Source of the DNA: Bacteroidales bacterium | GTDB taxonomy: Bacteria; Bacteroidota; Bacteroidia; Bacteroidales; UBA4181 | Reading direction: 5' to 3' | NCBI GenBank assembly: GCA_031264715.1 | Contig: JAISDP010000231.1 | Coordinates: 1 to 35,870 of the forward strand | DNA length: 35,870 nucleotides | Shown: in pieces, positions 3,755 to 35,870 of the stretch | Numbering within the stretch: the stretch's first letter is position 1 | How the letters are laid out: each line of letters starts with the position of its first letter | Made by a program: the position numbers and the translations under genes | Notes under the pieces: generated by a model | Told to the model about the DNA's origin: nothing | Seen by the model: only the letters and a program-made list of their open reading frames with translations | Database searches by the model: none

Positions 3755-3867
3755 CAATCATCCTGTAATAAACGCTCGTTTTGACCTTATCAATTAGTTT
3801 GTTTCTCGGGAGAAACTAACCTGTTTCATACTTGAAACTAACCGGCTTTCGCGTGTGTTTTATTATT

Positions 3868-3947
3868 GTGACCTACGTCACAGCTATGTGTGACCTACGT
3901 CACGATATGTTGTGATGTAGGTCACATTGTGTTATGATGTAGGTCAC
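3868..3947. repeat. Four copies of a 14-bp motif (GTGACCTACGTCAC): two direct, then two inverted, forming a long imperfect hairpin between convergent genes
   Basis: Copies at 3868-3881 and 3890-3903 are forward and identical. Copies at 3912-3925 (GTGATGTAGGTCAC) and 3934-3947 (ATGATGTAGGTCAC) are reverse. The arm mismatches would be G-U pairs in RNA. The element lies between the 3' ends of the 3035..3754 (+) and 4120..5733 (-) genes. Confidence 0.85.
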
Positions 3948-4055
3948 AAATATAATACTCGATTTGAAATAATTACTTTGCAGTGTACTTTTATCTAAAT
4001 GATACGGTCGGAAGATATTGTTGCACTCGTGAAACTGCTGACAGGGTTGGAACCT

Positions 4056-4119: not shown

Positions 4120-5733
4120 TTATTTTGCAAGGAGATGTCTCGCAAAGTTTACATTCAGCATTTCGAGCCGTTTGCTGTGTTCGCGCAAGCGATTCAGGAA
4201 CAGGTTGTATGATTTCCGGTCAGCCGGGCTCCAGGTGACTTCACTGAGGGCACATGCGCGTGGATATGCCATATATTCAACCTGCCGTTCATCGGCGATG
4301 TATTCCGTCCACAGGTTTCCCTGCGCTCCCATGATAAATTGCTTTTGATCGCCGGTTAATTCCTTGGGGATGGGATCATACATGTACACCATACTCAAAG
4401 GCAGGTAGCTGCCTGCAGCCAAAGGTTCCTCGTTACGGTTGCGCCATTGATAGTAATCGAAATAGCAATAACGGTGCGGCGTCATAATCACACGGTTGCC
4501 TTTCCGGGCTGCTGCAACGCCTCCCTGTTCTCCCCGCCACGACATGATGACAGCGCCGGGAATATTGCCGCCGTCAAGCAGTTCGTCCCAGCCGATTACT
4601 TGGCGTCCGTACGATTGCACATATCGGGCTATTCGGCGCATGAACCAGGTTTGTAACTGCTCGTCTGTCTGCAAGTCGTTTTGTATTTTCATATTATGAC
4701 AAAATTCCGACTTTTGCCATTGTTCTTTCGGGCACTCATCGCCGCCAATGTGGATATATTTGTCCGGGAAAATATTCATTACTTCGAACAGGATATGCTC
4801 AAGAAACAGGAAAGTATCCTCCTTCGGGCACAGTAGATTCGGGAAAATACCCCAATCCCGGGCTACTTCGAAATAGCTGCCCGAACAGGCCAATTCGGGA
4901 TGGGCGGCCAGTAAAGCGGTAGCATGTCCAGGCATTTCAATCTCGGGAACGATGGCGACATGCCGGTCGGCTGCATACCGCACCAGCTCCTTCAGTTCCG
5001 CCTGCGTGTAATATCCTCCGTAACGGGCTCCATCATAACGGTGGGGCTCATCGTTCAAATGCCCGATTAACGTTTCCTTACGCCATGCGCTGATGCTTTG
5101 CAGTTCAGGATAACCGGGTATTTCGATACGCCAGCCCTGGTCGTCGGTAAGGTGCAGGTGCAGGTAATTGAACTTGTGCATGGCCATCAGGTCGATATAA
5201 CGTTTGATGTCATTAACAGGGAAGAAATGGCGCACGACATCGAGCATCAGGCCCCGGTATGGAAATCGGGGAGCGTCGTTGATTTCCGCTGCCGGAATTT
5301 TCCATGAATCATGAGCAACCATGGTCCGGCTCTCGATCATCGGGGGAAGCATTTGCCGCAATGTCTGGAATGCATAGAAAATACCTGCCGGCGTTTGCGC
5401 CCGGATGGTAACATCCCTGGGGGTGACTTTCAGTTGGTAACCTTCGGGATTAGTGATCAGCGAGTCGAGTTCAACAACAATGGGAAAAGCAGACGACGGT
5501 GCATAACCGATGTCCAAGCCTGTGCTGGGATTGACCAGCGCGAGGAAAAGGTCGCATGCTTTCCGGACTCCGGCCGATTCGGTTTTCACCACGATTTTAG
5601 TCGCGGATGTGAGTGTAAACGATCCCACGCCCGGTTTTATTTCAGCCGGAAGAGGTATCACCGGCAATGATTGCGCCGACGCTCCCAACAGGCCAACATA
5701 TAATGCTATGATAGATGTGAGAATATACCGCAT
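4120..5733 (-). CDS. Secreted beta-N-acetylhexosaminidase (GH20)
   Basis: 537 aa with Sec signal MRYILTSIIALYVGLLGASAQS. GH20 hallmarks are present: RFPYRGLMLDVVRHFF, LHLHLTDDQGWRIE and the catalytic HIGGDE motif. Confidence 0.92.
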   Translation of the reverse strand: MRYILTSIIALYVGLLGASAQSLPVIPLPAEIKPGVGSFTLTSATKIVVKTESAGVRKACDLFLALVNPSTGLDIGYAPSSAFPIVVELDSLITNPEGYQLKVTPRDVTIRAQTPAGIFYAFQTLRQMLPPMIESRTMVAHDSWKIPAAEINDAPRFPYRGLMLDVVRHFFPVNDIKRYIDLMAMHKFNYLHLHLTDDQGWRIEIPGYPELQSISAWRKETLIGHLNDEPHRYDGARYGGYYTQAELKELVRYAADRHVAIVPEIEMPGHATALLAAHPELACSGSYFEVARDWGIFPNLLCPKEDTFLFLEHILFEVMNIFPDKYIHIGGDECPKEQWQKSEFCHNMKIQNDLQTDEQLQTWFMRRIARYVQSYGRQVIGWDELLDGGNIPGAVIMSWRGEQGGVAAARKGNRVIMTPHRYCYFDYYQWRNRNEEPLAAGSYLPLSMVYMYDPIPKELTGDQKQFIMGAQGNLWTEYIADERQVEYMAYPRACALSEVTWSPADRKSYNLFLNRLREHSKRLEMLNVNFARHLLAK

Positions 5734-25303: not shown

Positions 25304-25359
25304 GCCGCGATACAACAGGATATAATTCAAATAAAGCGTTCTTTGACACATTGGTTTAC

Positions 25360-25449
25360 ACGTTTTTAATCAGGAATTGTTTTATATCTTTGCACGACGG
25401 CATATCGGTAGACCCCGTCAGGGGCGGCATATCGGTAGACTTTTCAAGT
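25360..25449 (+). repeat. Repeat element 'A' (paralog of 35655-35716), with an internal promoter-like box and duplicated hairpin/CATATCGGTAG unit
   Basis: 25360-25411 matches 35655-35706 with 3 mismatches in 52 nt (ACGTT[T/C]TTAATCAGGAATTGTTTTATATCTT[T/C]GCACGACGGCATAT[C/T]GGTAG). This copy carries an extra 27-nt duplication (ACCCCGTCAGGGGCGGCATATCGGTAG). TATCTTTG at 25385-25392 matches the -7 consensus; the paralog has TATCTTCG. Confidence 0.85.
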
Positions 25450-25717
25450 GTAAATGGCGTTCCAACGCGTGTAAATGACGTTTCAACGAATGTAAATGGC
25501 GTGCTGCACGCATGTAAATGGCGTTCCAACGCATGTAAATGACGTTCCAACGCGTGTAAATGACGTTCCAACGCGTGTAAATGACGTTCCAACGAATGTA
25601 AATGACGTTCCAACGAATGTAAATGACGTTCCAACGAATGTAAATGGCGTTCCAACGCGTGTAAATGATGTTCCAACGAATGTAAATTGCGTTCCAACGC
25701 GTGTAAATGAGACGAAT
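25450..25717 (+). repeat. 21-bp tandem repeat array, 12 full units plus 1 truncated unit (consensus GTAAATGRCGTTCCAACGMRT)
   Basis: Head-to-tail units start at 25450, 25471, 25492 (22 nt), 25514, 25535, 25556, 25577, 25598, 25619, 25640, 25661 and 25682. A truncated unit sits at 25703-25717. There are no spacers. Each unit contains the mini-palindrome CGTT-CC-AACG. Confidence 0.95.
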
Positions 25718-25756
25718 GTTTTTGTAAATAATAAATAATCAGTAATAATCTTTATA

Positions 25757-25791
25757 AATTCTTAATTCTTAATCTTTAATTCTTAATTTTT
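25757..25791. repeat. AT-rich AATTCTTAATTCTTAA element (inverted copy of 19265-19298)
   Basis: The reverse complement reads AAAAATTAAGAATTAAAGATTAAGAATTAAGAATT. Compare AAATTAAGAATTAAAAATTAAGAATTAAAAATTA at 19265-19298. Confidence 0.7.
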
Positions 25792-25805
25792 AAAATCAAC
25801 TCATC

Positions 25806-26489
25806 ATGAATGATCGTCAGGAATCTAAATTAACCATGTATCAAAAAGTATTGGATGCGTGCAGGAAGTACGCTTCCGTATATACGGGCGTACCTGCCTT
25901 CGGGCAGGCTGTAGCGCAGTTGGACGGCAACATCGCCGACATCGTCCGGAAGGCGCAGGAACAGTCGGGCGCCCTCTCGAAGGGGGTTACCGTGGAAAAA
26001 GGAAACGCTTTCGACCGGATGGTGCAGCTCACCGTCATGACGGCAAAGGCCGTCTGCGTCTATGCCTTCAAAACGGGCAACGCGGAGCTGCTGTCCAGGG
26101 CGGGGCTCAGCAAAAGTACGCTCTATAACGGACATGTCATGGATGCGGTCATTACCGCAAAGAATATCGCAGAGGAAGCGGCAGCCCGTGCCGCCGACCT
26201 GCAACCCTACGGCATCGACGAACAGCAACGCAACGCCCTGTCGGAAAGCATCGCGCAGTGCGAGCTCCTGCGGAATAAACCTGCGGAAACAAGAGACGAA
26301 CGCAAACTGCACACCGGCAACCTCAAGCAACTGTTCGCCGCCGCCGATTCCACCCTCTTCGACGAACTGGATCCGCTCATCGACCTGTTCCGGGACACCG
26401 ATCCCGACTTTTTCACGCTTTACAAAACGTCGCGCAACGTGATCTATCCCACTGGCGGACGGAAAAAACAAGATAAACAAGATAAATAA
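25806..26489 (+). CDS. Hypothetical protein (227 aa, predicted mostly helical, GC-rich orphan gene)
   Basis: ATG-initiated ORF with balanced amino-acid composition. It ends in a KQDKQDK tail encoded by a direct ACAAGATAAA repeat. I recognise no family. An equally long antisense ORF exists but is Arg/Gly-rich, as expected for the antisense of a GC-rich gene. Confidence 0.6.
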   Translation: MNDRQESKLTMYQKVLDACRKYASVYTGVPAFGQAVAQLDGNIADIVRKAQEQSGALSKGVTVEKGNAFDRMVQLTVMTAKAVCVYAFKTGNAELLSRAGLSKSTLYNGHVMDAVITAKNIAEEAAARAADLQPYGIDEQQRNALSESIAQCELLRNKPAETRDERKLHTGNLKQLFAAADSTLFDELDPLIDLFRDTDPDFFTLYKTSRNVIYPTGGRKKQDKQDK

Positions 26490-26568
26490 GATGTAGCAGT
26501 TTTTCAGATGCATGGACTGACAGCATTAGCGCCGTTGAGCGGACAGGGGGAGGTTGATCCCCGACAAG

Positions 26569-26651
26569 ATCCCGTAGGCGACGGTATATCTGTAGTCCTG
26601 TAGGGACGGCATATCGATCGTCTTCTACCAATATGTCGCCCCTAATGGGGC
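26569..26651. repeat. Three mini-hairpin + CATATYRRTAG-type units (two forward, one inverted)
   Basis: 26569-26595 is ATCCCGTAGGCGACGGTATATCTGTAG. 26595-26620 is GTCCTGTAGGGACGGCATATCGATCG. 26625-26651 is CTACCAATATGTCGCCCCTAATGGGGC (reverse orientation). Confidence 0.75.
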
Positions 26652-26682
26652 TACCAACAGACGGTGCTTTAGCCGGACGGTG

Positions 26683-26855
26683 AAATCCCGTCAGGGATGT
26701 AATATTTGGTAGAAAACGACAATTCAAAATTCATAATTCATAATTCAAAAAAATCCCGTCAGGGACGGCATATTGGTAGAAAACGACAATTCAAAATTCA
26801 TAATTCAAAATTCAAAATTCAAAAAAATCCCGTCAGGGATGGCATATTGGTAGTA
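26683..26855 (+). repeat. 68-74 bp tandem repeat, about 2.4 copies (hairpin + GGCATATTGGTAG + AAAACGACAATTCAAAATTCATAATTCA microsatellite)
   Basis: Units start at about 26683, 26751 and 26825. Each opens with AAATCCCGTCAGGGA[YG]G..ATATTGGTAG. The first two continue with AAAACGACAATTCAAAATTCATAATTCA... and A-runs. Confidence 0.9.
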
Positions 26856-26904
26856 AAGCATGATAGCACGAATTTTCAAGGCATTAAAATTACGGTGGGT
26901 ACAG

Positions 26905-35625: not shown

Positions 35626-35654
35626 CTGTATCCTCAACGCGACAATTCCTGGAA

Positions 35655-35758
35655 ACGTTCTTAATCAGGAATTGTTTTATATCTTCGCACGACGGCATAT
35701 TGGTAGCCCTTTCAAGTGTAAATTACGTTCCAACGTGTATAAATTGCACTCCCGGTAG
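35655..35758 (+). repeat. Repeat element A' (paralog of 25360-25470) with only about 1-2 copies of the 21-bp unit
   Basis: ACGTTCTTAATCAGGAATTGTTTTATATCTTCGCACGACGGCATATTGGTAG...TTTCAAGT, then GTAAATTACGTTCCAACGTGT (35717-35737) and a degenerate ATAAATTGCACTCCCGGTAGC (35738-35758). Confidence 0.85.
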
Positions 35759-35870
35759 CAAATAATTTTTTATTTTTGAACAAAAACCATTTATATTTGC
35801 CGTCGGTTTTTTGATTCAAAAACATCTTGGTCATGTCAAAATCCCTGGACAATTTGTTGCCAATAATGTT

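Follow-up and report, generated by a model that had tools for sequence, protein, structure and literature searches.

Operators of the LytTR and AraC families of regulators contain direct repeats with a centre-to-centre spacing of 21 bp, placed upstream of the promoter in two or three copies. In the StbA-stbS, pSK1 Par and TubR-tubC systems, arrays of direct repeats in the promoters of the systems' own genes form a platform for a protein filament and for autoregulation (10.1101/2022.04.29.490116), and in type III toxin-antitoxin systems the antitoxin repeats are 31-62 nt long, occur in 1.9-5.6 copies and are followed by a terminator before the toxin gene (PMC3401426). Here we describe an array of 21-bp units at positions 25450-25744 of a Bacteroidales contig of 35,870 nucleotides (JAISDP010000231.1, assembly GCA_031264715.1), the whole of which is referred to as the window. 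The array and the gene downstream of it, which encodes a protein of 227 amino acids (aa), are both given on the plus strand. The literature on such arrays in Bacteroidota yielded no description of either the module formed by the two or the protein family.

The repeat array and its association with a gene family

Tandem Repeats Finder detected one strong array in the window, at 25449-25710, with a period of 21, 12.4 copies, 86% matches and a score of 368. Parsed on GTAAAT, it has unit starts at 25450, 25471, 25492, 25514 and onward to 25703, and contains twelve canonical 21-bp units of the form GTAAATG-RCGTTCCAACG-MRT (25450-25702). The array is confirmed to be real; the consensus 18-mer GTAAATGRCGTTCCAACG with up to 3 mismatches has 12 matches in the window versus 0.07 expected, and its sole match beyond the array, at 35718, is inside a paralogous element. 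TGTAAATG is not enriched in the rest of the window, and scans of the window with Rfam (gathering thresholds) and for tRNAs gave no matches. The preliminary description counted thirteen units, twelve full and one truncated. The twelve canonical units stand, but the thirteenth (25703-25723, GTAAATGAGACGAATGTTTTT) is a complete although degenerate unit of 21 nt and is followed by a fourteenth, likewise degenerate, at 25724-25744; by unit parsing and comparison with relatives, both are AT-rich and keep the 21-bp register (25703-25744), the array thus grading into an AT-rich region. As first described, unit 3 (25492-25513) has 22 nt, with a divergent core (GTGCTGCACG), and identical units occur in runs (5 and 6; 7, 8 and 9), from which recent turnover of units is apparent. 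The mini-palindrome CGTT-CC-AACG, initially ascribed to every unit, is present in 10 of the 12 canonical units, and the homologous arrays at related loci do not keep it. The units are joined head-to-tail with no spacers between them, so that the unique spacers of a clustered regularly interspaced short palindromic repeat (CRISPR) array are lacking, in agreement with what had been stated.

Four contigs (L001-L004) encode proteins with 80-90% identity in gene neighbourhoods that are unlike one another: ClpX, ClpP and trigger factor; SusC/D; SusD and the contig end; and a rhamnosidase with a cargo protein of the type IX secretion system (T9SS). The order of 21-bp array, AT-rich stretch of 80-115 bp and ATG is the same in all four, and the block shared with L002 (window 25448-26474, L002 5674-6668) is 90% identical (blastn). 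On these comparisons the array belongs to the gene and not to the polysaccharide locus, and it cannot be upheld as a capsule-locus element, the module being found elsewhere beside ClpX and trigger factor, SusC/D, rhamnosidase and other genes. In L240, a homologue with 49% identity is accompanied by no fewer than 12.7 units of CTTTCGCGCGGATGTAAATGC. One genome per species was scanned with a loose GTAAATG/21-bp pattern and genes were found by the family profile; among the matches listed, a family gene (profile E 1e-24 to 1e-72) adjoins the array in L144, a Prevotellaceae metagenome-assembled genome (MAG) with 39% identity and 14 units, in L196, a Hymenobacteraceae MAG, and in L207, the cultured Sphingobacteriaceae isolate Rubrolithibacter danxiaensis. 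The corresponding scan of metagenomes has, among the matches listed, one contig with a family gene next to an array (L325). Given how rare the family is otherwise, these four adjacencies are not due to chance. In L207 and L325 array and gene point in opposite directions, and the array is on this comparison orientation-independent. Most of the other matches listed in the loose DNA pattern scans of genomes, viruses and metagenomes are unrelated 21-bp satellites, some of them eukaryote-like, or coding VN-heptad repeats, and the informative loci among those listed were L144, L152, L196, L207 and L325; scanning metagenome contigs with protein pattern A1 gave no confirmed locus, and protein pattern A2 was too diverse for locus scans. 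In a clade of about 25% identity, whose genomes have 54-56% GC, the gene is preceded at about 250-300 bp by a degenerate 21/42-bp array that is unrelated in sequence (GAGCGGAGCGG..TCTCAA) and identical across four assemblies. Judged from these loci, array and gene family have been inherited together over deep divergence.

Nine family-associated arrays were set in register. Positions 1-7 of the unit (GTAAATG) agree in all nine, as does the G at position 18, and the T at position 21 agrees in eight; positions 8, 12 and 17 are mostly kept, and positions 9-16 vary between loci and are homogeneous inside each array. Each unit can be described as a conserved block of about 13 bp, CGnnT-GTAAATG-R, plus a freely varying spacer of 8 bp. 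Between the orthologous arrays of L235 and L242, the substitutions cluster at unit phases 10-12 and are distributed over the codon positions as 17/16/22, that is, with no third-position bias. With degenerate ends included, seven Bacteroidales-type arrays count 14, 14, 13, 14, 14, 14 and 13 units and that of L004 counts 21; 13-14 units are thus the normal state of the module in relatives, and the proposed locus-specific expansion in the window is not supported. The modules of L001 and L003 are 96% identical overall and hold 14 units each, yet their unit variants follow one another in a different order and the 22-nt unit is placed differently, which points to fast internal turnover with maintained length. 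On the alignments, it is the DNA that is under constraint, with a conserved period.

The array is located outside the open reading frame (ORF) and upstream of a -7 box. Its last units end in AAT[GA]TTTTT in the window, L002, L004 and L152, which together with the next G gives T[GA]TTTTTG at the unit junction, and the terminal unit GTAAATGAG[AG]CGAATGTTTTT is also present in L002 and L152. In the window, the junction of units 13 and 14 makes TGTTTTTG (25717-25724), a variant of the Bacteroidetes -7 box TAnnTTTG that is found at a unit junction in L002 and L004 as well. The canonical box TATTTTTG is at the equivalent junction in L001 and L003, and L144 has TTTG…TATCTTTG between array and ATG. 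Since the -7 boxes fall on unit junctions, the putative promoter of the gene is embedded in the 21-bp lattice in the window clade. By these motif matches the array sits upstream of a promoter-like box, and no canonical promoter was seen upstream of the array in L001, L003 and L144. An AT-rich spacer or 5' leader (25745-25805) reaches the start codon. The segment 25703-25805 is 83% AT and its equivalent in relatives 77-84% AT, a composition that is also normal for a promoter region in Bacteroidota, and there is no terminator-like hairpin between array and ATG (plus strand, 25703-25806).

The gene itself (25806-26489, plus strand) encodes an all-helical protein, according to the structural model, of an uncharacterised family. 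All of its 18 close homologues are hypothetical and most are from Bacteroidales or Prevotellaceae MAGs. A profile search of 1.84 billion representatives yielded 4,289 clusters at E<=1e-3 and 2,227 at 1e-10, and the members that were sampled are unnamed or hypothetical. Pfam, NCBIfam, PHROGs and PADLOC gave no consistent match for the 227-aa protein and 86 family members, Pfam gave no family-wide match even at E=0.5, and sequence searches of the PDB with two profiles gave no matches. AlphaFold2 with an 86-sequence alignment predicts long helices in a helical bundle (predicted local distance difference test, pLDDT, 95.1; predicted template modelling score, pTM, 0.79). Foldseek found nothing better than E=0.2 and a TM score of 0.41 in the PDB, and with two AlphaFold2 models none below E=0.04 in the PDB and BFVD.

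Other loci of the family have features of their own. In L235, a near-perfect inverted repeat of about 30 bp (4766-4797 and 4941-4975) surrounds about 145 bp between a GC-type array and the family gene, and may form a large hairpin or delimit an invertible promoter segment; the long hairpin of L242 at this place is arranged differently. The 49%-identity lineage has a second uncharacterised gene of 224 aa (L240 1054-1728, L241 817-1491), which overlaps the stop of the family gene by 8 nt, matches nothing in Pfam or PADLOC and has a ParD/ParE pair downstream. Members without array share an upstream segment of about 150 nt (L239 1850-2028, L364 200-353, L365 740-893) with a TAccTTTG -7 box and then a hairpin (GCCTGGA…TTCAGGC), which may be a conserved 5' leader.

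Interpretation of the array

The reading that we prefer, and that may well hold although we put it forward tentatively, is that of a phased protein-binding array, an operator or upstream activating sequence of iteron-like form, acting on the gene's own promoter. The multimeric binding platform, one of the roles offered at the outset, is thereby retained as the most plausible one, given the two-turn phasing of the 21-bp units. The array would be the cis-acting half of a two-part module of array, AT-rich promoter and helical-bundle gene, and would act as DNA, not as RNA or protein. The two-turn spacing would place all sites on one face of the helix, and a putative protein would bind cooperatively along the approximately 14 sites. 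The resulting nucleoprotein complex would form immediately ahead of the gene's promoter, in register with it in the window clade, and would set the transcription of the gene. Candidates for the binder are the gene product and a host factor of the Bacteroidota. The GTAAATG core adjoins family genes that are mutually about 20-25% identical, and an equally distant clade uses another core, a distribution that would also fit a host factor. Protein binding to the array, the identity of the binder and the sign of its effect on transcription are what we infer from these comparisons.

Several observations weigh against this reading. Three of the six lineages retrieved by protein (L239, L363 and L364/365) have no array, and the association is therefore frequent, not universal. 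In L152 the gene is missing although the array of 14 units is clearly homologous and shares left junction and terminal unit, and long intergenic GTAAATG 21-bp arrays (8-26 units) of uncertain relation have no family gene nearby in L132, L193, L210 and L220. These last four come from Sunxiuqinia rutila and from MAGs of Prevotellaceae, Bacteroidales and Dysgonomonadaceae; the gene-less arrays are neighboured by ordinary housekeeping genes that share no common feature. A predicted helical bundle with neither a helix-turn-helix (HTH) nor a relative in the PDB gives no positive sign of DNA binding, the median isoelectric point of the family is near neutral (6.6), and family members of about 300 aa add a C-terminal CarboxypepD_reg or fn3 domain; the protein may still have a new DNA-binding fold. 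The sample is about a dozen loci, and the conservation of GTAAATG in L144, L196, L207 and L325 is in part an ascertainment effect, as they were found by that pattern. At these loci and at L152, unbiased evidence is limited to whether the gene is present. The window clade and L240, which were retrieved by protein, share the core and differ in the spacer.

It is unlikely that the array is a functionless satellite or variable number tandem repeat (VNTR) that arose by slippage and unequal exchange in AT-rich intergenic DNA and hitch-hikes with the gene. The runs of identical units in the window, the internal reshuffling between L001 and L003, the gene-less arrays of L152, L193, L210 and L220 and the many unrelated 21-bp GTAAATG satellites in metagenomes are all as expected for such a repeat. 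What it leaves unexplained is that the same rare gene family is still associated at 49%, 39% and about 20-25% protein identity, that the period of 21 bp is retained even with an unrelated unit sequence, that a conserved block alternates with a variable spacer and that the number of units is nearly constant. Less probable still is an iteron or centromere-like maintenance site, with the gene encoding the initiator or centromere-binding protein of a small selfish element. No Rep, HTH or ribbon-helix-helix (RHH) domain or fold was found, none of the nine family loci has a DnaA box (TTATCCACA, at most 1 mismatch), and tblastn with two family members found no homologue in 72,556 plasmids (PLSDB) or 50,697 phages (INPHARED). 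Moreover, no integrase, relaxase or other mobile-element genes were found near the module among the window proteins, and its ends have no terminal inverted repeats and no target duplications. These results stand against the direct repeats at two-turn spacing, the 83% AT stretch, the gene for about 230 aa, the presence of the module in many genomic contexts and the precedent of single-protein systems such as R388 StbA-stbS and pSK1 Par, whose genes have direct-repeat arrays in their own promoters (bioRxiv 10.1101/2022.04.29.490116).

Copy-number phase variation, in which gain or loss of units alters the distance from an upstream promoter cassette to the gene and so switches its expression, is improbable: although identical units occur in runs, the cassette is 57 nt ahead of the window array and L004 has 21 units against 13-14 elsewhere, seven of the eight Bacteroidales-type arrays have 13-14 units and the four assemblies of the distant clade have identical arrays. 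In addition, the cassette is outside the conserved module, and a unit of two full helical turns outside the spacing of the promoter hexamers would not re-phase promoter elements. The copy-number-variable switch suggested earlier is thus not supported, nor is the repetitive leader RNA suggested alongside it. We consider it very improbable that the repeat functions as RNA, either as unit-length RNAs that bind the protein like a type III toxin-antitoxin antitoxin or as a repetitive leader. In L207 and L325 the orientation of the array is opposite to that of the gene, array and leader together fold no better than shuffles (z = +0.98), a canonical promoter ahead of the array is lacking in L001, L003 and L144, and units of 21 nt in 13-21 copies with no terminator are unlike type III antitoxin repeats; ToxN, AbiQ or other PADLOC matches were not found either. 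This outweighs the layout of promoter, tandem repeats and solitary gene in the window and the defence- or addiction-type genes that neighbour several loci (ParDE, HigA-like HTH, KAP NTPase, nSTAND and YhcG). A protein-coding heptad repeat, 21 bp corresponding to seven residues (VNDVPTR) in a single open plus-strand frame, is scarcely credible and already contradicted by the sequence. Frame-breaking units of 22 or 20 nt are present in 5 of 12 arrays (window, L001, L003, L152 and L207), stops interrupt the V-N frame in L207 and L210, and two loci have the array inverted. Synonymous variation is absent from GTA-AAT (AAC in 3 units only), whereas the other codons change freely, and there is no third-position bias between orthologous arrays. 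Such a repeat would nevertheless fit the open state of one plus and three minus frames of the array, the ORFs placed over arrays by gene callers in related contigs, and the GTAAATG 21-bp repeat of L165, which is truly coding; given that case, the pattern alone is not diagnostic. Frame breaks, in-frame stops and the absent third-codon bias make the array non-coding on this evidence, as had been proposed.

The L165 repeat (1283-1415) codes for VNDINGS/VNDIDGS heptads that form part of the linker in an AlbA_2/HATPase_c_4/winged-helix protein, and the same frame is open in the window array.

Rather unlikely, but of wider reach, is the idea that array and helical-bundle protein are a self-contained, undescribed and widespread system (about 4,300 clusters), in which the protein would polymerise on some 14 phased 21-bp sites, as a new repeat-reading class of DNA-binding proteins or as a nucleoprotein filament, the whole serving autonomously in regulation, maintenance or defence/addiction and moving from one chromosomal site to another. 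A phased binding platform that co-evolves with the gene family, should the array be one, would offer a handle on a large unannotated family whose fold is confidently predicted and has no solved relative. It would also be a natural DNA scaffold of 14 sites phased at two turns in the Bacteroidota, where regulation upstream of promoters is poorly understood, and a tractable test system, as a cultured carrier exists in Rubrolithibacter danxiaensis. We regard the lead as conserved, widespread, structurally unexplained and experimentally tractable, with a function that we infer.

Surroundings of the module in the window

This Bacteroidota contig has T9SS-type CHU_C and PorP/SprF proteins, and Wza/Wzc, acyltransferase, flippase and glycosyltransferase genes are located on both sides of the array. 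The family gene has a GC content of 55%, versus 49% in the housekeeping part of the window and 42-43% in the polysaccharide genes, and to this extent its earlier description as GC-rich applies, but in relatives the GC content of the gene equals that of the flanks. A reading of the gene as a GC-rich foreign island was dropped for the latter reason and because the polysaccharide locus is itself AT-rich.

Ahead of the array is a promoter cassette (25326-25394, plus strand, …TTAATCAGGAATTGTTTTATATCTTTG), recognised by its match to L002, with the -7 box TATCTTTG at 25385-25392. The position of this box, reported as about 60 nt upstream, holds at 57 nt, but not its role as the promoter of the array, since it is part of a dispersed cassette and the -7 box of the relatives is between array and ATG. 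The cassette matches L002 6727-6796 at 91.5%, where it is downstream of the homologous gene and directly ahead of the next one, and it also aligns with window 35630-35706. Because of its place downstream of the gene in L002, the TATCTTTG box is outside the module, and by these alignments the cassette is a separate dispersed element, independent of the array module. With its Bacteroidetes -7 box, the cassette (GTTCTTTGACAYATTGGTTTACACGTTTTTAATCAGGAATTGTTTTATATCTTTG) precedes differing genes at window 25326-25394, window 35655-35690 and L002 6727-6796. Between cassette and array is the left junction of the module (25395-25449, plus strand), which comprises GGCATATCGGTAG (25399-25411), the hairpin CCCCGTCAGGGG, a second GGCATATCGGTAG (25426-25438) and then ACTTTTCAAGT; the junction GACGGCATATTGGTAGCCCTTTCAAGTGTAAATG is common to the window array, L002, L152 and window 35690-35724.

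The region 26583-26857, between the family gene and an acetyltransferase gene, is a nest of elements resembling repetitive extragenic palindromes (REP) in both orientations, with a small hairpin (ATCCCGTCAGGGAT) and GGCATATYGGTAG. It holds a 74-bp unit in 2.5 copies with AATTCAA heptamers. The REP-like/junction motif has 12 matches in the window versus 1.3 expected, and is found beside the array module in the window, in L002 and in L152. The hairpin and T-run on the minus strand read as an intrinsic terminator, and an inverted pair in the nest (26618-26649/26755-26786) spans 32 nt with 84% complementarity.

The paralogous element (35655-35778, plus strand), identified by alignment and consensus scan and followed by a different ORF, has the order promoter cassette, GGCATATTGGTAG (35694-35706), shared junction, one good unit (35718-35738), one degenerate unit (35739-35759), as had been noted, and the -7 box TATTTTTG (35771-35778). 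From this order, 35655-35758 looks like a minimal or remnant copy of the module ahead of a different gene. The literature yielded no relevant description of the GGCATATTGGTAG element.

Four ORFs of 63-227 aa in and near the module are artefacts: 25351-25542 (plus), 25356-25697 (minus) and 25496-25738 (plus), due to stop-free repeat units, and 25830-26513 (minus), a shadow ORF due to the GC-rich opposite strand of the real gene. Comparable spurious ORFs are called as genes over the arrays in the public contigs L001-L004, L235 and L242. Such arrays are an annotation trap, in that gene callers lay spurious ORFs of 60-180 aa over them.

Elsewhere in the window, four palindromes of CRP/FNR type (TGTGACCTACGTCACA, TGTGA-N6-TCACA), two direct and two opposite with a spacing of about 22 bp, are located at 3866-3950 between a DUF4197 gene and a divergent gene for a hexosaminidase of glycoside hydrolase family 20 (GH20), and resemble an operator cluster.

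Comparison with described repeat systems

The head-to-tail repeats, the runs of identical units and the signs of unequal exchange recall the VNTRs of contingency loci, but here the number of units is nearly constant and the unit is long (two turns) and placed outside the promoter spacer and the ORF. Operators of LytTR and AraC regulators have two or three repeats as opposed to 14 here, and no such regulator is linked to the module. With type III toxin-antitoxin systems (ToxIN, CptIN and TenpIN), the module has in common tandem short repeats directly upstream of a solitary gene and an often defence-island-like neighbourhood. It differs from them in its units (21 nt in 13-21 copies), the absence of a terminator, an array that can be inverted and an all-alpha predicted protein. 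The array is on the strand of the gene in the window clade but not in L207 and L325, and the upstream promoter (L001, L003 and L144), the unit size and number, the terminator and a toxin of the ToxN/AbiQ, CptN or TenpN types (PADLOC, Pfam) that characterise these systems were not found.

Iteron plasmid origins also have direct repeats of about 20 bp phased at two turns, an AT-rich stretch and a gene for about 230 aa. The period of 21 and the 12.4 copies agree with iterons of about 17-22 bp at two-turn phasing, and there is an adjacent AT-rich region. Iteron origins, however, have 3-7 copies, a winged-helix protein of Rep_3/RepA type and DnaA boxes, and are on plasmids, whereas here there are 13-21 copies and none of these; a Rep initiator gene, DnaA boxes and plasmid carriage were not found, and the flanks in the window are polysaccharide genes.

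In the R388 StbA-stbS, pSK1 Par, TubR-tubC and ParR-parC systems, as in the module described here, short direct repeats are placed in the promoter region upstream of a co-inherited gene. Their repeats are 9-12 bp, spaced at about one turn, in sets of 5-10 and plasmid-borne, in contrast to 21 bp in about 14 copies on the chromosome in varied contexts, and their binders are HTH, RHH or PadR-like proteins, whereas the adjacent protein here has no recognisable DNA-binding fold. Although membership in this group is not supported, given the chromosomal location of the module, its differing unit geometry and the lack of a visible DNA-binding fold, these centromere and operator arrays are by analogy of layout the closest described analogues of the 21-bp array.

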